From a virus (taxonomy: Duplodnaviria > Heunggongvirae > Uroviricota > Caudoviricetes): 64,000 nucleotides of DNA. Both the position numbers and the translations under genes were made by a program. The DNA is taken from the IMG/VR virus record IMGVR_UViG_3300022910_000004; one strand, 5' to 3'. Positions within the stretch are counted from its first letter, which is position 1. Each line of letters starts with the position of its first letter. The notes beneath the pieces are model-generated. The model saw only the letters and a list, made by a program, of their open reading frames with translations, did not search any database and was not told the DNA's origin. Shown piece after piece: positions 9,642 through 29,896 of this stretch.

Positions 9642-9717
9642 GCGCTGTTAGTTTAATGGATAGAACAGGGGATTTCTAATCCCTCGGCGGCGGGTTCGAC
9701 TCCCCCACGGCGTACCA
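9642..9717 (+). tRNA. tRNA-Arg (anticodon UCU)
   Basis: cloverleaf folded by hand: acceptor GCGCTGT/ACGGCGT (two G-U pairs), D arm GTTT/GAAC, anticodon stem GGGGA/TCCCT with loop TTTCTAA (TCT at 9675-9677), T arm GCGGG-TTCGACT-CCCCC (one mismatch), discriminator A and encoded CCA. Confidence 0.8.
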
Positions 9718-13623: not shown

Positions 13624-13932
13624 ATGATTGATATCACAGGTGTTGATTTAAAAGAATTTGTTAAAAAGGTTTATGAACTATCTAAACCACAAGGTTTAGG
13701 ATTCTTGCATTATGAGTCTGGTGGATTGTCTGATGAAGAAGCCCAGTTTATTGTGGATAACTGCTACAATCCCACAAGATTTGCTGTTGCTATGGATTAT
13801 GTGAAAGGTCGTGCATGTAAAATGACTGTTCATAAAAATGGCGACAAACTTGAGATCAAGGATAGTTGGTATGATCACTCTGAGAATCAATTAAAAGAAT
13901 TGCTCTCTCATTTTGGTTTAGAGGTGGCTTAA
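13624..13932 (+). CDS. hypothetical protein
   Basis: GGAGAAG RBS; 102 aa. Confidence 0.5.
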   Translation: MIDITGVDLKEFVKKVYELSKPQGLGFLHYESGGLSDEEAQFIVDNCYNPTRFAVAMDYVKGRACKMTVHKNGDKLEIKDSWYDHSENQLKELLSHFGLEVA

Positions 13933-14819
13933 TGGAATTATTAAGACCACAATTAGCAGCCTCAGATGTGCCAGACATTTATACAGAAGTTAGTTGGCCT
14001 AAGATTATCCAGCCTAAATTGGATGGTATCTGTTGCTTGGCAGTGAATGGGCAGGCGTATAGTCGTACAATGAAACTGATTCCTAATCAATACGTACAGA
14101 AAGTGTTTAAGGAATTAAACCTTCATGGTACACATGGGGAATTGATGGTACATGGTGACTTCAATGATGTACAGTCTGCGATTATGCGTGAAGAGGGAGA
14201 ACCAGACTTCTACTACGTAATTTATGATAAATGGAATAGTGAAGATCATTATGGATTTAGAAAGGCCCACCTAGAACAATTTTATGTGGAAAATATCTGG
14301 GAGAAAGGGGGATATGAAAAACATATTCATTTAATAAAATCCTTCTACGTAACCAATCCAACAGAGTGTGAGGATAAACTTGAGCAATATATCAATTTAG
14401 GTTATGAGGGCGGAATATTACGTTGCCCCTATAGTCTTTATAAACAAGGTAGACACACCCTTAAGTCTCAGGGACTTTTAAAGCTCAAAAAGTTCTATGA
14501 TGATGAAGCAATCATTATTGGCTATGAGGAAAAGATGACCAATGAGAATGAAAAGGTTAAAGATGAGCGTGGCTATTCTAAACGTTCAAGTCATAAAGAG
14601 AATATGGTCCCTGCTGGCGTACTTGGAGCATTAATCGTTAAGTGGAAAGATGTTGAGTTTAAAATTGGTAGTGGGTACAACGATGAGCAGCGTAAAACTC
14701 TTTGGGATACCAGAGATGCGCTAATTGGACTCCCTGTCACATTCAAGTATCAAGAATTGTCTAAATATAAAGTACCAAGATTTCCTGTATTTAAGGGAAT
14801 TCGATTAGAGTATGTATAG
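13932..14819 (+). CDS. lig: ATP-dependent DNA ligase
   Basis: motif I KLDG (QPKLDGICCL), motif III GELMV, motif IV EGGILR, motif V LLKLKK. Confidence 0.85.
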   Translation: MELLRPQLAASDVPDIYTEVSWPKIIQPKLDGICCLAVNGQAYSRTMKLIPNQYVQKVFKELNLHGTHGELMVHGDFNDVQSAIMREEGEPDFYYVIYDKWNSEDHYGFRKAHLEQFYVENIWEKGGYEKHIHLIKSFYVTNPTECEDKLEQYINLGYEGGILRCPYSLYKQGRHTLKSQGLLKLKKFYDDEAIIIGYEEKMTNENEKVKDERGYSKRSSHKENMVPAGVLGALIVKWKDVEFKIGSGYNDEQRKTLWDTRDALIGLPVTFKYQELSKYKVPRFPVFKGIRLEYV

Positions 14820-15304: not shown

Positions 15305-15339
15305 GGCATCTCTAAATTAGTGACGAAGGAGTTATGAAT

Positions 15340-16299
15340 ATGAATCAGATTGTTAATCTCGTGCCAAAGAAGAGTGAACAGTTTGTACCTTGGGAAGGAC
15401 TAGGTACTAAAATAAATGTAAAGGATTCATTGAAGACGACCATGAAAAACGCTGGCTTAGACTGGCAAGCGAAGCGTACCCCTAACTTATACGCTGTATC
15501 CGCAGATACCATCATAAAAGGTAGTAAATCTGTAATATATCGTTCAGATAATAATCTAGAGTTAGGCGTTGTTACTGATAAGTACAAAATTGCACAGCCA
15601 GAGGATATTGTTAAGCTCTATAAAGATTTGATCGATCTTAAAGGTTGGAAATTGGATGTACTTGGCACCCTAGATGGCGGAAAGCGTATCTGGGCTTTGG
15701 CCAAAACAGACTCATCTTTCTTTGCTGGAAATGATGAAGAGGATATTGTTGACATTCATTTGTTACTAACTACCACATTTGATGGGAATAGTAGCACTCA
15801 AGGTAAGTTTATTGGTTTGAGAAATATTTGTGGACAAAGTTTAAGTCTTGCAGTGGGTGAAAACTCTGGACTAACAAAAATACGATTAAATCATAAGGCT
15901 GAATTTAATCCTAAATTTATGACACAAAAATTGAATGTGTTGCCGAAAGCTTCAGAGGTATTTGAAGGACAAGTGGCAACGTTATGTAATAAGCCTATCA
16001 ATGATGCCCAAGCGGCGAGATTTTTGATAGATATGCTGGAAGGTGAAGGTGCAGACCCTGATGATTTATCAGTAAGACAGAGAAATCTTGTACTGAAAGT
16101 GCTCGAATTATATCAGGGCAAGGGTATTGGTAGCAAGTTTAAGTCCTCAAGAGGCACAGCTTGGGGTTTACTCAACGCACTGACACAACATGTAGATTAT
16201 GATGTTGGACTTAACACCAATAACATTATTCGCTCAGCTTGGTTTGGTTTAGGGGAAACCCTCAAAATCAAGGCAATGACCAAACTACTTAAAATTTAA
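15340..16299 (+). CDS. DUF932-family phage/plasmid protein
   Basis: N-terminal ...VPWEGLGT...AGLDWQAK pattern characteristic of DUF932 (from memory); start placed at the second ATG for RBS spacing. Confidence 0.45.
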   Translation: MNQIVNLVPKKSEQFVPWEGLGTKINVKDSLKTTMKNAGLDWQAKRTPNLYAVSADTIIKGSKSVIYRSDNNLELGVVTDKYKIAQPEDIVKLYKDLIDLKGWKLDVLGTLDGGKRIWALAKTDSSFFAGNDEEDIVDIHLLLTTTFDGNSSTQGKFIGLRNICGQSLSLAVGENSGLTKIRLNHKAEFNPKFMTQKLNVLPKASEVFEGQVATLCNKPINDAQAARFLIDMLEGEGADPDDLSVRQRNLVLKVLELYQGKGIGSKFKSSRGTAWGLLNALTQHVDYDVGLNTNNIIRSAWFGLGETLKIKAMTKLLKI

Positions 16300-17296: not shown

Positions 17297-17618
17297 GAAT
17301 CCTTATATTGAAACAGTAATAACTAACACTATTCGTAAGTACAATCCTAATTACGGTGATAATAGGGTTTGTGAATGTGGTCATACTTATGACAGGCATT
17401 TTGATTCATATGAAAATATGAGCCCAGTCGGTTGTAAGTATTGCCCCTGTGGCACTTTCGTAGAGGCGAATCTCATACTTAGGCATACACCTTTTGATAT
17501 TTATCAAGTACCTAATGAGTGCGTATTTGTTCTTGATATTGTGAATTGGATTAATAAGCAAGAGGACAAAGAAGTCTACACTAAACTTTTGGTTGCTTTG
17601 GGTGAGGAGATTTACTAA
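17289..17618 (+). CDS. Cys-rich (zinc-binding?) protein
   Basis: CECGHTYDRH...CKYCPCG. Confidence 0.45.
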   Translation: MSENPYIETVITNTIRKYNPNYGDNRVCECGHTYDRHFDSYENMSPVGCKYCPCGTFVEANLILRHTPFDIYQVPNECVFVLDIVNWINKQEDKEVYTKLLVALGEEIY

Positions 17619-18076
17619 TGCCAGTAGAAATAATTAAGGGTGACCTTCTTGATGCCTTCGATAGAGGTGAAGTTGATATAATTGGCCATGTAGTAAATTG
17701 TCAAAGTGTGATGGGATCAGGAATTGCTTTAGCTATTAAGAATCGTTACCCAAATGTTTATAAAAGTTATTTAGATTCATTCCCAGAAGCATTGAAAGAG
17801 GGTGTGACAAAAGACTTAATGCTTGGTCACGTTGAAGTTATTGATGGTGTTGCAAATATGTATGCCCAATTTAAATACGGGGCAGACAAGCGGCATTTAA
17901 ATTATGGAGCTATATCTCAATGTCTTTCGAGTCTGGCTATGTATGGAGATAAGAGTTACATCTTTGGCTTTCCTTATAAAATGGGTTGTGATCGAGCTGG
18001 TGGGGATTGGTCTGTTGTTTTAGAAATGATAGAATATTACTTTAACGATGTTAGAGTTAAAATCTATGAACTATAA
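17618..18076 (+). CDS. macro-domain protein, TARG1/OARD1/DarG-like (ADP-ribose binding or hydrolase)
   Basis: IIGHVVNCQSVMGSGIALAIK matches the HxxNxxxxMGAGIA macro-domain signature. Confidence 0.65.
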   Translation: MPVEIIKGDLLDAFDRGEVDIIGHVVNCQSVMGSGIALAIKNRYPNVYKSYLDSFPEALKEGVTKDLMLGHVEVIDGVANMYAQFKYGADKRHLNYGAISQCLSSLAMYGDKSYIFGFPYKMGCDRAGGDWSVVLEMIEYYFNDVRVKIYEL

Positions 18077-18737
18077 ACTCTATCAAATGTCTCCATCCAT
18101 CTTCGTTGTTGAAATGGATAATGCCGAAGATCTTGCACATACATTTTTAAGAGTGCAGGAATTTTATGAAAGTGAGAATGATGATTTCAGAGAAGGCGTT
18201 TTTACCATTGAAGAGTACAAGAAGTGGTATTGTACTCAAAGTTATGATGGGACATTTAGCTATGCCAAAGATTGGGTCGGATTTAATATCCATTCAAGTG
18301 TAATTGAACGGTGTTATGCTTGTTCCAGAGAATTCACTAAAGATGATATTTTCTTTTTAAGCATTTGTGCCAGCATAAAGAACCAAATAGGGGATAATGG
18401 ATACTATTTGTGTGGTATTAAAACATGTGATAAAGAAACTTTAGACCATGAGTTGGCTCATGCGCTGTTTAGTACTAATTTAGAATATCGACAAGTAATG
18501 ATTGATGCAGTGTTAGCAATAGATCGTTTGAATTTAGATGTTATTTTCACTACCTTACAAGATGAGGGATATTCGTTTTCTGTTGTTATAGATGAAACAC
18601 AGGCACATTTAAGTACTGGTCTGGTGAATATCCCAGAAACAGAGTATTTGTTAGGGTTAAGAAAACAATTTAGCAGTATCTTCAATAAGTTTATAAAAGA
18701 ACTTGGAGATCCTATATTAATAATGAGAGGAGCATAA
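18066..18737 (+). CDS. HExxH zincin-like protein (SprT/DUF45-like metallopeptidase?)
   Basis: DHELAHALF motif; several Cys; start ambiguous (18048, 18066 or 18087). Confidence 0.4.
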   Translation: MNYKLYQMSPSIFVVEMDNAEDLAHTFLRVQEFYESENDDFREGVFTIEEYKKWYCTQSYDGTFSYAKDWVGFNIHSSVIERCYACSREFTKDDIFFLSICASIKNQIGDNGYYLCGIKTCDKETLDHELAHALFSTNLEYRQVMIDAVLAIDRLNLDVIFTTLQDEGYSFSVVIDETQAHLSTGLVNIPETEYLLGLRKQFSSIFNKFIKELGDPILIMRGA

Positions 18738-18741
18738 TTTA

Positions 18742-18999
18742 ATGAATAAGGCACTAATTTTAATGATGATTACTCTTTGTCTTGTAGGCTGTGGAGACAA
18801 GTCTTATACAGATGATAGTGAAAATTATAAATTACCACCAGAACTCTCTGCATGTAAAGTTTACTATCTAGGTCAAGGCGGACTGCAAACAGGAATAACA
18901 GTAGTGCATTGCCCAAGAGCAGATACTACAACGTCTTATACACAGTCTTGTGGAAAAGGTTGCACAAGACATATTAATACTACAGTGGCGAGCTATTAA
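18742..18999 (+). CDS. lipoprotein
   Basis: lipobox LVGC. Confidence 0.5.
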   Translation: MNKALILMMITLCLVGCGDKSYTDDSENYKLPPELSACKVYYLGQGGLQTGITVVHCPRADTTTSYTQSCGKGCTRHINTTVASY

Positions 19000-19000
19000 T

Positions 19001-19948
19001 ATGAATTTAATTATGAAATGCCTATTCGGTAGCCACCTTTATGGTTTGAACACACCCACTTCAGATAAAGACTATAAAGGAATCTATTTGCCAGACAAAG
19101 ACAATTTGTTGCTTGGAAATTATGCCAAGCATTATTCTGAATCTACAGGTAATGATAAGACTAAGAATACTAAAGATGATATTGACGTGGAGATATTTTC
19201 TCTTCCCTATTTTATAGAACTTGCCTGTAAAGGCGAGACTGTAGCTTTGGATATGCTTCATGCAAGAGAGGAAATGTTTGAGTCTAATATTGGTGAAATA
19301 TGGTGGGAGCTAAAAAATAGACGTAAGATGTTCTACACCAAAGATATGAAGTCCTATATTGGCTATGCTCGTAAGCAGGCTAATAAGTACGGTATCAAAG
19401 GTAGTCGTATGGGGTCTGTTGAAGGAGCTATGAAAGCTTTAGCTAAACTAACACCCAATTGGAAATTGAGTCAGGTTTGGGACAACTTGCCCACAGATGA
19501 GTTTTTAATAAAAGTTACTATGAATGATAAATCCTCTGCAAAACCTTTAAATTTTTATGAGGTATGTGGCCGAAAGTACCAAGACACTTTATTTGTTTAC
19601 CAAGCTTATGAGCTTATAGAGGGGATCTATAAAGAGTATGGGGATAGGGCTAGACAAGCTAAGAATGATGAGGGCGTGGATTGGAAAGCTGTTAGTCATG
19701 CACTAAGGGCTTCTTACCAAATGCTTGGTATTTTGAATGATGGAGATTTTGAATATCCTCTCCCCCAAACAGAATTTTTGTTGGCGGTAAAAACAGGGCA
19801 GCTTAACTTTGTAAATGAAGTTCAGCCAGAATTAGATTCTCTTATCGTTAAGATCGAAAAGATGTCAGCGGAAAGTAGTTTACCAAATAAAGTTGACAGG
19901 AATTATTGGGATCAATGGTTATTAAATGTTTATAGAGAATATCTTTAG
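19001..19948 (+). CDS. Pol-beta-fold nucleotidyltransferase (unknown substrate)
   Basis: GSHLYGLNTPTSDKDYKG (GS...[DE]x[DE]) plus downstream DIDVE; start placed at the ATG following the stop of the lipoprotein gene. Confidence 0.5.
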   Translation: MNLIMKCLFGSHLYGLNTPTSDKDYKGIYLPDKDNLLLGNYAKHYSESTGNDKTKNTKDDIDVEIFSLPYFIELACKGETVALDMLHAREEMFESNIGEIWWELKNRRKMFYTKDMKSYIGYARKQANKYGIKGSRMGSVEGAMKALAKLTPNWKLSQVWDNLPTDEFLIKVTMNDKSSAKPLNFYEVCGRKYQDTLFVYQAYELIEGIYKEYGDRARQAKNDEGVDWKAVSHALRASYQMLGILNDGDFEYPLPQTEFLLAVKTGQLNFVNEVQPELDSLIVKIEKMSAESSLPNKVDRNYWDQWLLNVYREYL

Positions 19949-19957
19949 GAGAAAACA

Positions 19958-20830
19958 ATGACAATACAATTATTCATAGATGGGGTAGAAGTTCCTGTAA
20001 AAAAGATTAAATTTTCTGATGGGGGATCTAATGTAAAATTAGAAGTTCCTGAAGGATTATCTCCAAGAAGATACATATGCATTACAGTTGACCCAATTAC
20101 ACCCGCAGATAACTATTTGTGGGAAATCGGTTTGGTTATGTATGCTTTGGAGGTATTGTTTCCAGATTACGAAACAAAGACTATTATAAATTTACCATAT
20201 CTACCTCACGGCAGAGCAGATAGAGTGTTTGAAAGAGGTAATCCATGCCCTCTAGAATGTTTCTTTGATGAATTCCTTTGTTGGGAATTAGATAATATTG
20301 AGATTCATTTAACTGATCCGCATAGTGACTTTTATAAAAATTATGCAGATAATCTCGCTTTTGAAGTGAAAGAGCAGTACCAATGTTTTAGAGATACAGT
20401 TTTTGGATTCCAGTCTGGAGATTATTTAATAAGTCCTGATAAGGGGGCCAAGACTAAGATTCATCAACTTCAACAGTACTTAGATTCTCGCTGGGTGGCT
20501 TCATTTGTTGTTGAGGCGGAAAAAGTGAGAGATCCATCCAACGGTAAAATATTAGAAACTACTTTACCTGAAGGTATTGATCTTACTAATAAGGTATGTT
20601 ATATTGTCGATGACATTTGTGATGGAGGTGGAACATTCATCCCTCTCGCTGAGAAGCTTAAAGAAGCTGGAGCAAAAGAAGTTCATTTGTACGTCACTCA
20701 TGGCATATTCGCTAAAGGTTTGGATTTGTTTAAAGGTAAAATAGATAAGCTTCATGTATACCAAATAGTAAGTAATTATGTTACAATGATTGATATTATG
20801 AACTTTAATCAGGGGAAAGAGGTAAAATGA
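19958..20830 (+). CDS. ribose-phosphate pyrophosphokinase homolog (Prs-like; candidate ADPR-PP synthetase of NARP1 type)
   Basis: PRPP-binding loop YIVDDICDGGGT; divergent N-terminus lacking canonical Prs motifs. Confidence 0.65.
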   Translation: MTIQLFIDGVEVPVKKIKFSDGGSNVKLEVPEGLSPRRYICITVDPITPADNYLWEIGLVMYALEVLFPDYETKTIINLPYLPHGRADRVFERGNPCPLECFFDEFLCWELDNIEIHLTDPHSDFYKNYADNLAFEVKEQYQCFRDTVFGFQSGDYLISPDKGAKTKIHQLQQYLDSRWVASFVVEAEKVRDPSNGKILETTLPEGIDLTNKVCYIVDDICDGGGTFIPLAEKLKEAGAKEVHLYVTHGIFAKGLDLFKGKIDKLHVYQIVSNYVTMIDIMNFNQGKEVK

Positions 20831-21136: not shown

Positions 21137-22858
21137 ATGCCATTAGCACAAACAGATAGTTATAAGCTTTCACACAAAGGGTTTATGAATAAAGGTACAA
21201 CTAAGCTTTATTCAAATATGACCGCCCGTTCTGGCAAACATTTCCCCGTCCTGCAAGATCGTTGGGATGGTAAAGTAGTAGTATTTGGATTTCAAAAGTT
21301 TGTCATTGAATTCCTGATTAATGAGTGGAACAGTAAGTTCTTTCAAATGCCTAAACATAAGGCTATTAAGAAATTCAAACGCCTTGTAGATGCTTACCTT
21401 GGTAAAGATGCTGTTGATATGGCACACTTCGAAGCTTTGCATGATATTGGTTATTTACCTTTGCACATCAAGTCTATTGATGAAGGTAATCGTGTAAATA
21501 TTAAAGTTCCTTTGTGGACTATTACAAATACTCATCCAGATTTTGCATGGTTAGTGAACTATCTCGAAACTGTGATGTCTTGTGAGTGCTGGAAACCAAT
21601 TACCACAGCTACGATTATCTCTGAATATCGTAAACTGATTAATGAATATGCACTAAAGACCACTGGCAGCTTAATGGGCACACAGTTCCAGATTCATGGT
21701 TTTGAATTCCGTGGAATGGCAAATCGTCAAGATGCAGCAAGCTGTGCAGCCGGAATGTGCTTATCTACAAATGGTACAGATACAATTCCAGCTTTAGAAT
21801 TAATTGAAGAGTACTACTTCACTGATATTGAGAAGTACTTTGTGGCAACTTCTGTGCCAGCAAGCGAACACTCTATTGCGTGTCTTGGAACTGCTGTACA
21901 AGGTGAATTAGAATCCTATCGTAAATGGATTACTGTAGACTATCCTACTGGCATTGTAAGCTTGGTAAGCGATACCTACGATTATTGGAAAGTACTAACA
22001 GAGTATCTCCCAATTCTTAAGCCCGATATTCTTGCTCGTCCAGTTAATGAGATTGGTTTGAGTAAAGTAGTTATTCGTCCTGATTCTGGTAACCCTGCGG
22101 ATATTATTTGTGGAGATGTTTTCACAGATTTAACTAAAGACTGTAAAGATTTTGACACTTTCAAACGTTGGGCGTTAGAAATCATTCGGGAAGAAGTGGG
22201 AGATGATACTCCTCATGGAGAGTGTGGTGAATGTAACCCAAACAAAATCTTCAAATGGCAAGATAAGTACTATGATGTACATGCAGAAATTGAATGGAAT
22301 CGTTATGATAAACAATACTATTATATGGAGGACGAACGCATCACTAGTGTGGAAGAAATTGAACTTACACCAGAACAAAAAGGCTCTGTAGAACTCCTCT
22401 GGGAGACCTTTGGAGGCACTGTAACAGAGCAGGGATACAAAGTATTAGACAGTCACATAGGATTGATCTATGGTGATTCTATTACACTTAAAGTGGCTTT
22501 AGATGTAATGGAACGATTAGCAGCCAAAGGATTTGCCTCAACAAACATAGTGTTTGGTGTAGGCAGTTATACAATGCAGTATCTAACTCGTGATAGCTTA
22601 GGTATGGCAGTTAAAGCCACCTATGGCGAAGTTGATGGTGTTGGTTATGAGTTGTTTAAAGATCCAATTACTGATAGCGGTATGAAGAAGTCAGCAAAAG
22701 GATTGTTACGTGTGGAAAAAGAGGGAGATGATTACGTTCTATATGATCAGCAAACTCTAGAGCAAGAGGCTACAGGGGAATTAACTTCTCTGTTTTTGAA
22801 TGGGAAATTGATGAAACAAACTACATTCGAAGAATGTCGTAATCGTCTTTGGAAATAA
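21137..22858 (+). CDS. nadV: nicotinamide phosphoribosyltransferase family protein (NadV/Nampt-like; candidate Namat)
   Basis: 573 aa; type-II PRTase RPDSGNPADI motif; adjacent to Prs-like gene. Confidence 0.75.
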   Translation: MPLAQTDSYKLSHKGFMNKGTTKLYSNMTARSGKHFPVLQDRWDGKVVVFGFQKFVIEFLINEWNSKFFQMPKHKAIKKFKRLVDAYLGKDAVDMAHFEALHDIGYLPLHIKSIDEGNRVNIKVPLWTITNTHPDFAWLVNYLETVMSCECWKPITTATIISEYRKLINEYALKTTGSLMGTQFQIHGFEFRGMANRQDAASCAAGMCLSTNGTDTIPALELIEEYYFTDIEKYFVATSVPASEHSIACLGTAVQGELESYRKWITVDYPTGIVSLVSDTYDYWKVLTEYLPILKPDILARPVNEIGLSKVVIRPDSGNPADIICGDVFTDLTKDCKDFDTFKRWALEIIREEVGDDTPHGECGECNPNKIFKWQDKYYDVHAEIEWNRYDKQYYYMEDERITSVEEIELTPEQKGSVELLWETFGGTVTEQGYKVLDSHIGLIYGDSITLKVALDVMERLAAKGFASTNIVFGVGSYTMQYLTRDSLGMAVKATYGEVDGVGYELFKDPITDSGMKKSAKGLLRVEKEGDDYVLYDQQTLEQEATGELTSLFLNGKLMKQTTFEECRNRLWK

Positions 22859-23343: not shown

Positions 23344-23373
23344 TAGACAAAGCTTAAGTAAAGGTGTTATAAT
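23344..23373 (+). promoter_or_regulatory. extended -10 promoter candidate (TAGACA-18-TGtTATAAT)
   Basis: TGnTATAAT at 23365-23373. Confidence 0.4.
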
Positions 23374-24334: not shown

Positions 24335-24362
24335 GATGCTTCGTAAGAGGCATCATTTTTAA
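24335..24362 (+). terminator. putative terminator
   Basis: GATGCTTC...GAGGCATC imperfect hairpin then ATTTTTA. Confidence 0.35.
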
Positions 24363-24408
24363 ATGCTTAATGAGTTTTTAAGAATGATAAACAAATAGGA
24401 GTACAGAT

Positions 24409-25119
24409 ATGGCAAATAGTCTTGGCGATAGAATGAAGGGTTATGAACATGTTAATCGTAACTTCTTGATTAAAAGAATGCCTGTGGTTATCCGTTTGGA
24501 TGGAAAAGCTTTCCACACTTACACTAAAAACTGTGGAAAGCCTTATGACTCAGATTTGCATATTGTTCGTAAGGCGACTCTGGAACATCTTTGCAAAGAA
24601 ATACAAGGTGTTATTATAGGGTATTCTCAGTCAGATGAGATATCCCTTGTTCTTAAAGACTGGCAGACATTCAACACTTCTGCTTGGTTTAACAATAACA
24701 TCCAGAAAATTTGCAGTGTATCGGCCTCAATGTGTACGATGAGGTGGAATAGTGCAGTTAATTTCATGAACTATGATATTGGGCATATTGTTTTAGAGCC
24801 TTGTGCTATGTTTGACTCAAGAGTGTTCAATCTTCCCAAAGAGGAAGTAGTGAATTATTTAATCTGGAGGCAACAAGATTGGGAACGTAACTCTGTCCAA
24901 ATGTTGGCCCAAAGCTTATACTCTCACAAAGAGTTACAAGGTAAAAGCTGCTCCCAATTGATTACTAAAATCGAAGAGGAATTTAATATTATCTGGGGAA
25001 ATTTTTTGCCTTGGAAAAAGCAAGGTGAAATTTGGTTTGGTGGGAAAACACAAGAGAGTTTTCTTTTTAAGAATAATCGTGTCCTTATTGAGGAAGAACT
25101 TAATTTGGAGTTGAATTGA
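24409..25119 (+). CDS. tRNA-His guanylyltransferase Thg1-like protein (3'-5' nucleotide addition)
   Basis: RLDGKAFH and GYSQSDEISLVL match the Thg1 catalytic core. Confidence 0.7.
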   Translation: MANSLGDRMKGYEHVNRNFLIKRMPVVIRLDGKAFHTYTKNCGKPYDSDLHIVRKATLEHLCKEIQGVIIGYSQSDEISLVLKDWQTFNTSAWFNNNIQKICSVSASMCTMRWNSAVNFMNYDIGHIVLEPCAMFDSRVFNLPKEEVVNYLIWRQQDWERNSVQMLAQSLYSHKELQGKSCSQLITKIEEEFNIIWGNFLPWKKQGEIWFGGKTQESFLFKNNRVLIEEELNLELN

Positions 25120-26276
25120 TGAAACGCTATTGGACATCTTTGCTCGCCACTTATGTTTTAGACTGGACAGTCCCTAATGCTATACGGGAGATTGTCCAAA
25201 ACTGTCTGGATGACCCAAGTACATTTGAATATGATCTTAGTGGCCCTACTATCGAGCTTACCTCTAAAGGTGTTCAATTAAACCCTGCTACACTCCTTAT
25301 GGGGGCTTCTGGCAAGCGAGGGGACCCTACGGTAGTGGGTGGCAAGGGAGAGGGCTACAAAGACGCGCTATTGGTCTTATTGAGGAACGGACATAAGGTC
25401 ACTATTAAGAATGGTAACAAGCTATGGATACCTTCTTTTGAATACACTGAGATGTTTGATCAAGAAGTCTTGTGTGTTACAGAGACAGACCTAGAAGATA
25501 ATGAGGACCTCACTTATCTTATTGAGGGGATAACTCCAAAGCTTAGAGATAGTATCATTCATGATTGCCTATACTTACAAGATGACCTTGGTGAAGTTAG
25601 GGAAGGTAGTATTGGTAGGATATTAGTTGATAGGCCCAATAAACTCTACGTAGGTGGCCTATTCGTCACAGACATAACAGGACATAAATATTCTTATGAT
25701 TTTGCTCCTGCATACCTCCCTTTAAACAGGGATCGTAAGTCTGTTGATAGTTGGAACTTGGCCGCTAATACCACCAAATTGCTGGAAGAGGCTTTTCCGC
25801 CTAAAGAAGTGGCAGAGATGGTCAGAGATCGTGTTCGAGATACTGGAGGTTATTACGCCAGTATAAAAAGCCAAGCCGTGGCCGAAGAGGCTTATAACTT
25901 GGTTAAAAAAGAACATGGAGATACTGTTGTTATTGCATCTAATACAGATGAAGAGCAACAACTTAAGAAGTCTGGGTATGATAATGTAAAAACTATCTAC
26001 GATGATAATTATAGACAGCTAGTAAAATCTAGTGTAGAATACCAAAGCAATGTTAATAAATTAGAAGTTAAAGTGTTAGAGGAAGATAAGCGTACACCCA
26101 TTGAAATGTTAGAAGAATTCTATTTAGCTATTGAAGATTGTCTTGATTTTGAGGGGCGAGACTTATTTGACGATTTGATGGACACTTTTAATGATCGTGG
26201 TGTAGTGTTTCTTCGTAAAGCAAGTCAAGTTACAGCCAAGACCACATTAAAAGAAGAGGAAGAAATTCCTTTTTAG
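25116..26276 (+). CDS. GHKL/Bergerat-fold ATPase-like protein
   Basis: N-box EIVQNCLD (ExxxNxxD) and glycine-rich GGKGEGYKDALLV. Confidence 0.4.
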   Translation: MMKRYWTSLLATYVLDWTVPNAIREIVQNCLDDPSTFEYDLSGPTIELTSKGVQLNPATLLMGASGKRGDPTVVGGKGEGYKDALLVLLRNGHKVTIKNGNKLWIPSFEYTEMFDQEVLCVTETDLEDNEDLTYLIEGITPKLRDSIIHDCLYLQDDLGEVREGSIGRILVDRPNKLYVGGLFVTDITGHKYSYDFAPAYLPLNRDRKSVDSWNLAANTTKLLEEAFPPKEVAEMVRDRVRDTGGYYASIKSQAVAEEAYNLVKKEHGDTVVIASNTDEEQQLKKSGYDNVKTIYDDNYRQLVKSSVEYQSNVNKLEVKVLEEDKRTPIEMLEEFYLAIEDCLDFEGRDLFDDLMDTFNDRGVVFLRKASQVTAKTTLKEEEEIPF

Positions 26277-26290
26277 TATAGGAGATAACA

Positions 26291-27475
26291 ATGACACCTT
26301 TTGAGCAACAAGGTTGGACTAAAGATAGTCTATTTACCGTAGATAACAGTTCATACTTCAGACAAGGTGAGATTATTTGGCTACATAAAGATGATAAATC
26401 AAGTAGTCCATATTTTACAAATGGTGAGATGACATTTTCCAAATGTCTATCTGGGCTAAAGTACTTAGGAGAAAAAGGTAAAATGAGTAGAGATAAAATT
26501 ACGGATAAATCTTCTTATAAGCCAAACTCTATGCCAGACATTACTAAGTTTAAGCATACTGCGGTAGTAAAGTTCTATACTGATGGAAGATTATATGGAA
26601 AAGAATATCATTATCTATGTGATGACTCTATCTTAAGGAAGTATATAGATAGCGATGGCCCTTTTGACCATACTGCTATTGTTAGTGGCGAGTCTAAGAA
26701 AATTTCAGTTAGATCGGTATTACCAAATTATCTTTCTGAAAAGGCGACTAAGGCTCTTCCAGAGGTAGCCTTTACATCACCAATCTTGACAGATTCAGTA
26801 AAAATTAAGGTTACAGTATCTAACCCTAATGAGTTAAAAGTAGGTAGTAGAGTTAAGATAAGAAAGGGTACAAGATATTATGGAAATTCTACCAGAAATC
26901 CGGCAGAGGTTGAAGGTACTGTTAACGAAATTAAATCTTCCGGTTGGTTTCATGTTATATGGGATAATGAGGAATCAGAAGATTATGAATATCCAGATTT
27001 AGAATTGGTTGAAAATAAAGTAGAAAAAGATTTGAAAATATCTTCATCTAATGCTAAAGTGGAATCTAGTGCTTCACAATCTGTAAAGCTGGTTTGGGAT
27101 AAAGAGTACTTAATGAGAGTTGGTGGTTATTGGAAAATGCCTGATAATATGGGTGTTTCTGAAACAGATGTTAAACTTAAACAAGAGGATGTTAATATGG
27201 GTGTACGTAGAACAGTAACAATTGAATTGATTGACGATGATAAGGGCTTGGATGTATCTGATGCTCTTGTTGCATCTTACGAAAATGTCTTGATTGAGAC
27301 AGATACTGAAAGTGCAATTCGTGAGATTTTGATGACCAAGAATGTTGCCAAGAAATTGGAAGAACACAATGTTAAACGCATGGCTACAGTAGATTTAGAT
27401 ATTCTTAATCGTACAGGTAATGAAGTTAAGCTCCGTTCAGTACAGCTTAATCAACTTCGTTGGAATGTAAAATAA
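26291..27475 (+). CDS. hypothetical protein (394 aa)
   Basis: GGAGA RBS; no recognisable motif. Confidence 0.5.
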   Translation: MTPFEQQGWTKDSLFTVDNSSYFRQGEIIWLHKDDKSSSPYFTNGEMTFSKCLSGLKYLGEKGKMSRDKITDKSSYKPNSMPDITKFKHTAVVKFYTDGRLYGKEYHYLCDDSILRKYIDSDGPFDHTAIVSGESKKISVRSVLPNYLSEKATKALPEVAFTSPILTDSVKIKVTVSNPNELKVGSRVKIRKGTRYYGNSTRNPAEVEGTVNEIKSSGWFHVIWDNEESEDYEYPDLELVENKVEKDLKISSSNAKVESSASQSVKLVWDKEYLMRVGGYWKMPDNMGVSETDVKLKQEDVNMGVRRTVTIELIDDDKGLDVSDALVASYENVLIETDTESAIREILMTKNVAKKLEEHNVKRMATVDLDILNRTGNEVKLRSVQLNQLRWNVK

Positions 27476-27507
27476 GCTAAACTAAAAGGTAGTATCATAG
27501 TAAAACA

Positions 27508-27538
27508 CAAAGGCCAGTAAATGGCCTTTGTCGTTTCT
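27508..27538 (+). terminator. rho-independent terminator
   Basis: AAAGGCCA-gtaaa-TGGCCTTT then GTCGTTTCT. Confidence 0.55.
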
Positions 27539-27565: not shown

Positions 27566-27967
27566 ATGTATCAAGATTCTAATAGCTATTATTTGAGTGA
27601 ATATTATAAAGAGCAGGAAGAGTCAGAAAATAGATTTTTACTGAGTCTGCCTGAAGTTCGATCAGCTTGTGTAGATCTTGCAAAGAATATTATGAATGGC
27701 TACGCCGATAGTGACTCTTATCACTGGGCTTACGGTCCCTATTTTGATAGTGATACAGGAGAATATGATTCGGAACTATTAGCCGTATTAGAAGACTGGT
27801 ATCAAGATGACTTAGACCCTCTAGATGAACCATTACTAAGAGTATATGCAGTAGATGCATTACAAGCTGCTGTAGACATCCTTTACAATATGAGTATTGA
27901 TGACATACTTGAAGATGGATATCCCTTTAGTAAATTATTAAATGAGGTAGTTGAAAAGAATGAGTAA
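27566..27967 (+). CDS. highly acidic protein (candidate DNA mimic/anti-restriction)
   Basis: 133 aa with dense D/E/Y runs (DSDSYHWAYGPYFDSDTGEYDSE...). Confidence 0.45.
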   Translation: MYQDSNSYYLSEYYKEQEESENRFLLSLPEVRSACVDLAKNIMNGYADSDSYHWAYGPYFDSDTGEYDSELLAVLEDWYQDDLDPLDEPLLRVYAVDALQAAVDILYNMSIDDILEDGYPFSKLLNEVVEKNE

Positions 27968-28190
27968 AAGACTTTATACATATGAACTGAAGGACAAAGA
28001 ATATCCTGAAGATATTGTGAAAGTAGTCTATACTTCGAATAGTTGCAGTTGTTCTTATGATTGTTATGAAGATGAGTTGGACTTCTATATTGAAGATGAG
28101 TGGTATGGCAAAATAGAATTAAGGGGCAAACAGAAAGAAATAATCTTTGGGTTACTTACTTCTGAGTATGATATAAAGGAAATTAAGTAG
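27951..28190 (+). CDS. hypothetical Cys-containing protein
   Basis: 79-aa ORF. Confidence 0.45.
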   Translation: MKRMSKRLYTYELKDKEYPEDIVKVVYTSNSCSCSYDCYEDELDFYIEDEWYGKIELRGKQKEIIFGLLTSEYDIKEIK

Positions 28191-28201
28191 GAAGGTGAGA
28201 T

Positions 28202-29896
28202 ATTAGCTGTATAGAAAAGATAAAGCATGAAGTAGATCATTGTACTTCTGCGAAAGGATTACAGGTCTTTTATGATGATGGTAGAGGTAAATACACTGGT
28301 TATTGTTTCTCTTGTGCAGCCAAAGGATTAGAGGCGTACGTAGAAAACCCTTATGACGAAGGGTATGAGCCAGAACCACCAAAGAAAAAGACTAAGGAAG
28401 AAATTGATGCAGAGATTCGGGAGATTAAAGAGTTAAAACACCCTGAATTTACTTATAGAGGGATTCCTAAAGAATACTTTAAAAAGGCAGGCGTAAGATT
28501 AGCTTATAGTGAGTTTGATGGATTAACTCCAAATTCTTTTAACTTTCCTTACTCTTTAGGGGGAAATCTAAAAGGTTACAAAACAATTTTACTGAATAAA
28601 AAATTGCATTGGTCGGTAGGAGAAATTGTTGGTTGTGATCTTTTTAACTGGGAAGTTGCGAAGAAGAGAGGAACCAAGCGTTTATATGTGACGGAAGGGG
28701 AATGGGATTGTCTTTCCTTGGAGTACATGCTAGACCATACGTTTGGGCAGAATGGAAAGTATAGACATGCTGTTGTCTCTATTCCTCATGGAGCCGGTAG
28801 TGCCGCCCCTACCTTAGGGAGAATGCGTAAGGAAATAGAGGAACTGTTTGATGAAATTGTTTTAGTATTTGACAATGATGAAGCTGGGGTTAATGCGGTT
28901 AAAGAAGTTCAAAAAGTATTGCCAAATGTTCTAGAAGCTCCACATGTCACTGGTGTTAAGGACGCTAATGAGGCATTACAGTCTGGCGATTATAAAAGCT
29001 TTATTGAATTTGTTAAATGGAAAGCTCGTAAACCTCCAATACAAGGTGTGGTTACAGTTAGTCAGGCAATGGAAAGGGGAATTACCAAACCTGAGTCTGG
29101 TTTATCTCATCCTTGGGAAAAATTATCGACCGTAATGTATGGTCAAAGATTTGGGGAGGCTACTTGTGTTGCTGGATGTGTAGGCGGTGGTAAAACAGCC
29201 ATAGCTCATGAATCTAGTGCTCACAATGCAAATTTCCATAAATTGCCAAGCTTCGTCGCTTTGCTGGAAGAAGATAATATCAAAACCTGTTGGAACATTG
29301 CAGCTAAGATAGATTCTATTCCTTATAACAGACCGGAAGTCTTTGAGAAAAACAAAGAACAATACTATGAGACTATGAAGAGCTTGGAAGATAAGATCTT
29401 TATGTGGAATAGTCAAGGGAATTCTAGTTACAGATTTGATTTACCAGAAATACTGAATGCTATTCGATTTAATAATGCAGAGTATGGATGCAAATTTGCT
29501 TATATCGATAACATGACCAGATTAGTGGATACGATGCCAACAGCAGAAGCTAATGAGTTTATCAACAGATACTCAAGTGAAATTGCAAATTTGGCTAGTG
29601 AATTAGATATGCATATTTATGTGCTATCACATTTGAATCCTCCTAAATTTGGTCGAAGTCATGAAGAGGGTGGAGAGGTATTGCCAGCTCAACTTACAGG
29701 AAGTAGGGGTATCATGAGATCGTTCTCTAACATTATAGGATTTGAGAGAAATAAATTTGGAGAGACCAAACACAATTCTTTCTTGTCTCTTATAAAAAAT
29801 AGAGATTATGGTAATGAGCAAAAAATTAAATCTCAGTACAACCCTGACACAGGAAGATTAAAGGAATATGAATGGGAAGGAGAAACTTTATGGTAG
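28202..29896 (+). CDS. bifunctional primase-helicase (T7 gp4-like); N-terminal zinc-binding domain encoded upstream of the first ATG
   Basis: open frame from stop at 28196-28198; HC(x17)CFSC zinc-finger at 28230-28320; Toprim VTEGEWD and VFDNDEAG; Walker A AGCVGGGKTA; no ATG/GTG/TTG before 28604. Confidence 0.8.
   Translation: MSCIEKIKHEVDHCTSAKGLQVFYDDGRGKYTGYCFSCAAKGLEAYVENPYDEGYEPEPPKKKTKEEIDAEIREIKELKHPEFTYRGIPKEYFKKAGVRLAYSEFDGLTPNSFNFPYSLGGNLKGYKTILLNKKLHWSVGEIVGCDLFNWEVAKKRGTKRLYVTEGEWDCLSLEYMLDHTFGQNGKYRHAVVSIPHGAGSAAPTLGRMRKEIEELFDEIVLVFDNDEAGVNAVKEVQKVLPNVLEAPHVTGVKDANEALQSGDYKSFIEFVKWKARKPPIQGVVTVSQAMERGITKPESGLSHPWEKLSTVMYGQRFGEATCVAGCVGGGKTAIAHESSAHNANFHKLPSFVALLEEDNIKTCWNIAAKIDSIPYNRPEVFEKNKEQYYETMKSLEDKIFMWNSQGNSSYRFDLPEILNAIRFNNAEYGCKFAYIDNMTRLVDTMPTAEANEFINRYSSEIANLASELDMHIYVLSHLNPPKFGRSHEEGGEVLPAQLTGSRGIMRSFSNIIGFERNKFGETKHNSFLSLIKNRDYGNEQKIKSQYNPDTGRLKEYEWEGETLW

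Follow-up and report, generated by a model that had tools for sequence, protein, structure and literature searches.

What does a phage gain from a Thg1-like protein (TLP), and on which RNA ends would such an enzyme act? The question is raised by an intact reading frame in a 64,000-nucleotide stretch of viral DNA (the window), which is the reverse complement of approximately 20.3-84.3 kb of the 96,681 bp metagenomic contig ENA ERZ27228472 k141_1664580. An initial annotation, made from the sequence alone, had placed the gene in a phage. The contig bears this out, as it encodes a contractile-tail module (sheath, tube, tape measure and baseplate) and replication genes, with primase/helicase, family A DNA polymerase, ribonucleotide reductase and further typical phage genes. 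No nucleotide-level relative of the TLP locus was detected in INPHARED by megablast. The features of the window discussed below are collected in Table 1.

Table 1. Features of the TLP locus and its surroundings, with positions counted from the first nucleotide of the window.
Feature	Position	Strand	Details
tRNA-Arg(TCT)	9642..9717	+	G1-U72 wobble, A73, encoded CCA; sole tRNA in 82.6 kb of the contig
Macrodomain protein, DarG-like	17618..18076	+	NCBIfam NF048014, E=5e-13, below cutoff; PADLOC DarG, E=1.4e-11
RlaP-family Pol-beta nucleotidyltransferase ('RNA repair pathway')	18950..19948	+	PF10127, E=1.3e-12; phrog_388, E=3e-98; 4.5 kb 5' of TLP
Sigma-70-like promoter of SPFH gene	23344..23373		
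Terminator-like hairpin	24335..24354	+	8 bp (4 GC), then T-run; consensus match; between SPFH stop and TLP start
Shine-Dalgarno AGGAG	24397..24401	+	7 nt 5' of TLP ATG; read from the sequence
TLP coding sequence	24409..25119	+	ATG start; 236 aa; intact ORF
Divergent patch inside TLP	~24500..24900	+	residues ~31-165 (catalytic core); 36-84% nt identity to L004
385-aa gene (phrog_6077)	25119..26276	+	ATG overlaps TLP TGA stop (TGATG)
Terminator-like hairpin	27507..27531	+	10 bp; after 394-aa gene; possible end of transcription unit

The identification as a Thg1/TLP enzyme had been made from two core motifs. Both are present in the translated reading frame, RLDGKAFH at residues 29-36 and GYSQSDEISLVL at residues 71-82, and database searches place the similarity far beyond chance. 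Against the Pfam Thg1 profile PF04446, which had been proposed as a check, the protein scored 100.6 bits (E=8.1e-29; curated cutoff 29.2) over profile positions 2-130 of 130, and it matched PHROG 4717 (phrog_4717, 'tRNA-His guanylyltransferase') with E=6.3e-86. The best match among PDB structures was the TLP of Bacillus thuringiensis, BtTLP (4KGK/4KGM), with E=1.4e-53 over residues 3-206. In the same search, Thg1 from human, yeast and Candida, and archaeal TLP, scored far weaker (3e-13 to 3e-5).

To examine individual residues, we aligned the phage TLP with BtTLP, human THG1 (hTHG1) and 117 homologues from a search of 5.8 billion proteins. The catalytic carboxylates, whose absence would have spoken against the identification, are all there: D31, D76 and E77 align with D30/D75/E76 of BtTLP and D29/D76/E77 of hTHG1, and are invariant in 117/117 homologues. 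The activation residues K44, S75 and N161, and the nucleotidyl-transfer residues R29, K100 and R138 together with H36, are likewise present and 98-100% conserved among these homologues, with K or R at position 44 (roles as in PMC3701042). Modelling with AlphaFold2 from an alignment of 22 sequences (pLDDT 88.6, pTM 0.87) predicted an RRM-like palm carrying the C-terminal extension of Thg1, and 32/32 significant Foldseek matches of the model in the PDB were Thg1/TLP structures, with BtTLP first (TM 0.83-0.86).

The HINNLYN motif is a mark of eukaryote-type Thg1. The equivalent region reads ERNSVQM in the phage protein and SKNSISM in BtTLP, compared with CHINNLYN in hTHG1. Because the eukaryotic motif is absent, the phage protein is judged from its sequence to be a TLP of the bacterial type; contrary to the name it commonly bears in databases, it is no eukaryote-type tRNA-His guanylyltransferase. 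BtTLP is also its nearest characterised relative by sequence (1.4e-53, against 3e-13 for human THG1), and the order is the same by fold. Comparison with two lineage relatives gave a dN/dS of approximately 0.2, a value that indicates purifying selection. Sequence and model together argue that this phage TLP is genuine and apparently active.

The substrate preference of BtTLP offers the most direct guide to what the phage enzyme would do. [quoted passage not shown] Because of this preference, 5'-end repair, which was among the activities put forward in the initial annotation, is by analogy the best-supported activity for the phage protein. If it works as BtTLP does, a 5'-monophosphate RNA end would be activated by ATP or GTP, and an incoming NTP, paired to the 3' strand of the acceptor stem, would attack the activated 5' end with its 3'-OH. 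This cycle would be repeated until the acceptor stem is full, with the missing 5' nucleotides templated by Watson-Crick pairing. From the genomic context, the targets in infection may be host tRNAs and the phage's own tRNA-Arg.

BtTLP can also place a templated G-1 on C73 tRNA-His, and it rescues a yeast thg1 deletion (PMC3061083); by analogy the phage TLP would be able to add G-1 opposite C73 of tRNA-His as well. It might therefore be dedicated to maintaining this nucleotide, re-adding G-1 opposite C73 on those host tRNA-His molecules from which it is lost, or whose processing goes wrong, in infection, so that charging by HisRS is sustained. Such a role would agree with the name 'tRNA-His guanylyltransferase' already carried by most TLP-bearing phage records, and the bacterial G-1:C73, being a Watson-Crick pair, can be templated by a TLP. 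However, the phage TLP lacks HINNLYN, and the enzyme it most resembles prefers repair substrates to -1 addition. Furthermore, G-1:C73 is the genome-encoded arrangement of bacterial tRNA-His, and post-transcriptional addition is not needed.

The tRNA genes themselves point the same way. The phage carries its own tRNA, as had been noted, but this is a tRNA-Arg(TCT), and ARAGORN and Rfam found no tRNA-His in 82.6 kb of the 96.7-kb contig. Viral TLP genes had 81 unique tRNAs within 10 kb, two of them called as tRNA-His, and the single tRNA-His that parsed cleanly, at locus L062, encodes G-1 opposite C73. The suggestion that the enzyme matures phage tRNAs did not hold for tRNA-His and was rejected on these grounds. 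We consider dedicated maintenance of G-1 on host tRNA-His to be unlikely.

A different relation between the enzyme and phage tRNAs would be editing of the mitochondrial style, in which phage tRNAs are encoded with mismatched 5' acceptor ends that are then replaced by the TLP. TLPs carry out such 5' tRNA editing in protist mitochondria (PMC3701042), the tRNA-Arg of the window has a G1-U72 pair, and the first twelve TLP-linked tRNAs included 4/12 with G1-U72 and one with C1xA72. We compared acceptor-stem pairs 1:72 to 3:70 between 90 TLP-linked and 321 control viral tRNAs. Non-Watson-Crick 1:72 pairs occurred in 17/90 TLP-linked tRNAs and 54/321 controls (Fisher P=0.64), and true mismatches in the first three pairs in 4/90 and 17/321, respectively (P=1.0). 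Moreover, G-U is a legitimate pair. With no surplus of wobble pairs or mismatches in TLP-linked tRNAs, editing was rejected as an explanation and seems to us extremely improbable.

We returned to repair of 5'-truncated tRNAs and asked whether the genome encodes other RNA-repair functions. In addition to RlaP, the same contig carries, at locus L014, an RNA ligase (Rnl; phrog_968, E=5e-49) and a T4-type Pnkp (HAD_PNKP, 1e-41; phrog_505, 5e-91). Linkage of these genes to the TLP is neither operonic nor tight: RlaP is 4.5 kb away, Rnl and Pnkp lie approximately 2.6-5.3 kb outside the start of the window and approximately 27-29 kb from the TLP, and unrelated genes intervene. Pnkp converts nuclease-made 5'-OH ends to 5'-phosphates, the form needed by a TLP, and in this phage it could provide 5'-phosphates from the 5'-OH ends left by nucleases. 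Among PADLOC defence HMMs, the sole match on the TLP and its flanks was the macrodomain protein, as DarG-like. The context is consistent with the TLP belonging to a scattered set of RNA-repair tools (Pnkp, Rnl, RlaP, macrodomain and TLP) that would sustain the translation apparatus.

To place this arrangement in a wider setting, we surveyed the neighbourhoods of 88 viral TLP loci, which represent 44 lineages at <70% TLP identity. No gene family occurred within 6 kb of the TLP in more than 8/44 lineages, but two themes recurred. The first was RNA repair, with two RNA-ligase families, RlaP, an AAA_33 Pnkp-type kinase, the cREC cyclic-phosphate domain and metallophosphoesterases, and the second was NAD+ metabolism, with NAMPT, Prs, NAD synthase, isochorismatase and LigA. 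Within 10 kb, 14/44 TLP lineages had one or more RNA-repair genes (RNA ligase, RlaP, Pnkp-type kinase or cREC), compared with 3/120 control viral loci, an enrichment confounded by the control loci being shorter and from other phage types. Since the neutral marker dUTPase was likewise enriched (6/44 lineages and 1/120 controls) and the controls differed in this way, the association of RNA-repair genes with viral TLPs is suggestive at most. The repair-gene neighbourhoods of viral TLPs match those of bacterial Thg1, for which PNK, MACRO and RNA ligase neighbours were reported in 2010 (PMC2904730). Taken as a whole, we think it reasonably likely that the gene encodes an active bacterial-type TLP, a template-dependent 3'-5' RNA polymerase, which serves in 5'-end tRNA repair within a dispersed RNA-repair kit.

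The genes immediately beside the TLP had been described as SPFH and GHKL-ATPase-like. The first of these assignments stood, as the gene 5' of the TLP matches SPFH/Band_7 in Pfam (E=3.9e-28); by its match to the terminator consensus, the hairpin that follows this gene is predicted to separate the TLP from the SPFH transcription unit. On the other side, the TLP stop overlaps the start of the 385-aa gene and the next terminator-like hairpin comes only after the 394-aa gene, so co-transcription of the TLP with the 385-aa ATPase-like gene and the 394-aa gene is possible. The 385-aa protein had no match of its own in Pfam or the PDB, a family-profile search against the PDB returned nothing, and a single-sequence AlphaFold model was unusable (pLDDT 34). 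In 31 homologues, however, E24/N28/D31 (ExxxNxxD) and G74/G77/G79 (GxxGxG) are invariant, and 3/31 family members weakly matched HATPase_c-type models (best E=6e-4). From these motifs and matches, a very divergent GHKL/Bergerat-fold ATPase is a plausible candidate assignment.

Neither flanking gene proved to be a conserved partner of viral TLPs. Among the 44 lineages, SPFH was found near the TLP in 2/44 and the ATPase-like gene in 1/44. The phrog_6077 family occurs in 113 phage records, mostly Pseudomonas siphophages of approximately 57 kb, none of which is among the listed TLP-bearing INPHARED records. In a relative with 73% identity (L009), a homing-endonuclease-like gene is inserted between the TLP and the ATPase-like gene, and other neighbours flank the TLP in Shewanella phage 1/4, Aeromonas phage 2L372D and contig L011. 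A partnership with these two genes was rejected; they are lineage-specific neighbours.

A further feature lies within the coding sequence of the TLP itself. We compared the window with IMG/VR contig L004, which is approximately 99% identical over most of 20 kb. Nucleotide identity was 98.9% in the SPFH gene and 99.5-99.7% in primase/helicase and PolA, compared with 79% in the TLP. The divergence within the TLP is confined to a patch with sharp boundaries and flanks that are 96-100% identical to L004, and all catalytic motifs are kept across it. Like patches were seen within RlaP, NAMPT and the ATPase-like/394-aa genes. This pattern indicates allele exchange by recombination within the gene, as read from the two sequences. 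Allele exchange in accessory genes is ordinary phage mosaicism, and is also expected for genes that engage host factors.

Such a history could also mean that the TLP hitch-hikes as an accessory gene and matters little to this phage. It lies within a mosaic, recombination-active accessory region, and the family is rare in phages, with homologues in 164/50,697 INPHARED records. Against this, the dN/dS is low, the functional residues are all kept even across the swapped allele patch, the ribosome-binding site is strong, and the gene has been retained in 44 diverged viral lineages. We regard a mere passenger as very unlikely.

The 60 listed of the 164 INPHARED records with TLP homologues are from large phages of at least 104 kb, bar one 595-kb 'uncultured phage' record. 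A second CDS labelled 'tRNA-His guanylyltransferase' in Vibrio phage vB_CoeS_P1 was discarded, as it is unrelated to the TLP and reflects an annotation slip. Homologues were also found in at least 591 IMG/VR contigs. Cellular relatives in GTDB reach at most 55% identity and are mostly from Firmicutes and Bacteroidota, apart from a single 67% match located on an 8.9 kb MAG fragment. So far, all members of the clade of the window TLP (>60% identity) come from viruses or metagenomes.

The position of the gene relative to replication functions allows another class of substrate to be considered, in which the enzyme repairs or extends the 5' ends of phage transcripts, small RNAs or replication primers. 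The TLP lies 1.0-3.8 kb upstream of a primase/helicase and DNA polymerase module in the window, L009, L011 and Vibrio phage vB_CoeS_P1, and directly 3' of a helicase gene in Shewanella phage 1/4. There is also a precedent in Dictyostelium TLP4, which acts on non-tRNA RNAs (PMC6471195). However, closeness to replication genes is expected of any early or middle accessory gene, and the characterised bacterial and archaeal TLPs are all efficient on tRNA acceptor stems (PMC6471195; PMC3061083). A non-tRNA substrate is in our judgement doubtful.

If tRNA acceptor stems are the substrate, the next question is what would damage them during infection. The initial annotation had pointed to tRNA-cleaving defences, specifically anticodon nucleases and PARIS-type cleavage. 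Anticodon-loop cuts of the PrrC and PARIS type are healed by Pnkp and RNA ligase, both of which are encoded on the contig. A TLP uses the 3' acceptor strand as its template and rebuilds the 5' terminus only. Because this terminus is the sole end it can repair, the enzyme cannot mend anticodon-loop cuts, and this part of the proposal was not upheld.

Defences that cut the acceptor stem or tail fared no better as candidates. Retron Eco2 nicks tRNA 6-7 nt before the CCA end (PMC12916289), HEPN-MNT clips CCA tails according to the same paper, and Cas12a3, going by the title of its report, cleaves 'tRNA tails' (PMC12851939). In these cases the template strand itself is cut, so a TLP cannot repair the damage, and the link was rejected. 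Our literature search found no defence that makes 5'-truncated tRNAs; the sites cut were in the anticodon arm, D-loop, T-loop and 3' acceptor strand or CCA tail. Phage TLPs could still be a counter-defence against an undescribed host immune nuclease that hits the 5' nucleotides of the tRNA acceptor stem, with Pnkp giving the 5'-phosphate and the TLP refilling the stem. The exchanged TLP allele would then reflect an arms race with the defence or with a host inhibitor. We hold this extension to be improbable as it stands.

The idea of repair or counter-defence, which the initial annotation had offered, has a published history. A defence-directed RNA-repair role was raised for phage 201phi2-1 in 2010 (PMC2904730), in 2013 the TLP gene of Bacillus phage Bc431v3 was singled out as unusual (PMC3601020), and a repair role was raised again for jumbo phages in 2021, beside RlaP and CCA-adding enzymes (PMC7824862). 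The family, its occurrence in phages and the repair/counter-defence hypothesis have thus all been published before, and the gene in the window brings no new principle. A literature search turned up no experimental work on phage TLPs.

If phage TLPs do restore tRNA 5' ends, tRNA repair by phages would gain a fourth arm, beside healing and sealing by Pnkp/Rnl, restoration of 3' ends by CCA-adding enzymes or RlaP, and replacement tRNAs. It would also imply a host activity attacking tRNA 5' ends that is yet to be found. We know of no bacterial or phage TLP with a demonstrated in-vivo substrate, and a tractable phage system could settle this question, which has stood in the Thg1 field since 2010. 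Isolated phages of Vibrio, Shewanella and Aeromonas include close relatives.

Among known enzymes, BtTLP is the closest counterpart of the phage TLP, with approximately 50% identity over residues 3-206 and with shared carboxylates, activation lysine and substitution of the HINNLYN region. The phage protein differs in a short insertion around residues 120-130 and in its diverged C-terminal 30 residues; it is virus-encoded, and is known here from sequence and model, whereas BtTLP is known from biochemistry. Eukaryotic Thg1 (human THG1, 3OTB, and yeast Thg1) belongs to the same superfamily and shares the two-metal active site and three-step chemistry, but is approximately 20-26% identical to the phage TLP in fold alignments. 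The phage enzyme, which lacks the HINNLYN motif, is expected to depend strictly on a template, without adding a non-templated G-1 opposite A73.

The other phage genes of PHROG 4717 (S14_69 of Shewanella phage 1/4, gp148 of Aeromonas phage 2L372D, gp143 of Bacillus phage Bc431v3 and that of Pseudomonas phage 201phi2-1) are of the same family, and among the matches listed the window TLP is 60-67% identical to the closest isolates. A like, speculative role has been suggested for these genes (PMC3601020; PMC2904730; PMC7824862). Outside the immediate lineage, their gene context is unlike that of the window. T4-type repair by Pnkp and Rnl1 and the RlaP systems have counterparts on the contig, which encodes Pnkp, RNA ligase and RlaP, although in this phage the repair genes do not form one operon. 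Those systems heal and seal internal breaks or act on 3' ends, whereas the TLP would rebuild the 5' terminus.

We compared the TLP region with L004, an IMG/VR contig that is otherwise about 99% identical, and found sharply bounded patches within accessory genes in which nucleotide identity falls to 40-75%. One of these patches spans the catalytic core of the TLP, and all catalytic motifs are retained within it. Upstream of the accessory block lie a small ATP-dependent DNA ligase and a DUF932 protein (E=4e-32), the gene for the latter keeping the same position in the 73%-identical relative L009. The stop/start overlap of the TLP and ATPase-like genes seen in the window is broken in L009 because a 231-aa gene, homing-endonuclease-like and with a weak AP2 match, is inserted between them.

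Among the other TLP-bearing relatives, Vibrio phage vB_CoeS_P1 (L003, PV206818.1) carries a 114-aa CDS publicly labelled 'tRNA-His guanylyltransferase', which we rejected as the TLP as it has no similarity to it; the true TLP ORF lies just upstream and is without annotation in the public record. The 128-kb phage contig L011/L012 encodes a 63%-identical TLP; within 10 kb of it lie an IS605 gene of the Cas12f-like OrfB/TnpB type and another for a CapR-domain protein. Only one match from a 'cellular' genome exceeded 55% identity: L215 (RXKB01000072.1), a short 8.9-kb contig of a 'Candidatus Dependentiae' MAG, at 67% identity to the TLP. We suspect that it is a phage fragment of the same TLP clade mis-binned into the MAG.

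tRNA genes were considered both near TLPs and in control viral contigs. The tRNA-Pro(TGG) of Aeromonas phage 2L372D, 3.6 kb from its TLP gene, has a C1xA72 mismatch atop the acceptor stem; as a class, such acceptor-stem mismatches showed no excess in TLP-linked tRNAs over control viral tRNAs. In the 130-kb viral control contig L119 (IMG/VR 3300012012_000956), the T-arm pattern GGGGTTCGAATCCCC occurs eight times in identical form, regularly spaced about 125 bp apart. This is suggestive of tRNA or tRNA-like units, nearly identical to one another, arrayed in tandem.

Coordinates of features in the window and in related or control contigs
Feature	Location	Match or remark
RNA ligase, N-terminal PHA02142-type OB domain	L014:3639-4928	phrog_968, E=5e-49
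T4-type polynucleotide kinase-phosphatase	L014:5444-6334	phrog_505, E=5e-91
DNA ligase	window 13932..14819	
DUF932 protein	window 15334..16299	
DarG-like macrodomain	window 17618..18076	
229-aa gene	window 18048..18737	no annotation
RlaP	window 18950..19948	
Prs-like phosphoribosyltransferase	window 19958..20830	phrog_619
NAMPT-like protein	window 21137..22858	phrog_448; NF006629, 489 bits
Divergent patch, TLP	window 24500..24900	
Other divergent patches	window 19366..19666, 22066..22366, 25966..26866, 27766..28366	
231-aa insert	L009:10695-11390	
114-aa CDS	L003:8728-9072	
True TLP ORF	L003:8001-8666	
OrfB/TnpB	L011/L012:19368-20468	
CapR-domain protein	L011/L012:16071-17339	
tRNA-Pro(TGG)	L002:2292-2366	
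GGGGTTCGAATCCCC copies	L119:1507-2398	

An RNA ligase and a polynucleotide kinase-phosphatase are encoded on the window's own contig but outside the window (locus L014), about 2.6-5.3 kb beyond its first base. PhoH and dCMP deaminase genes were also observed near these two. Within the window, the 229-aa gene separates a DarG-like macrodomain gene from that of RlaP, an 'RNA repair pathway' nucleotidyltransferase with homologues in 1,518 phage records, for the most part T4-like.

Neighbouring Prs-like and NAMPT-like genes are also present in the window. Genes of NAD metabolism (NAMPT, Prs, NadE or isochorismatase) occur within 10 kb of the TLP in 8 of the 44 viral lineages. The Prs-like and NAMPT-like pair resembles the pathways by which phages rebuild NAD+ and so counteract defences that deplete it.
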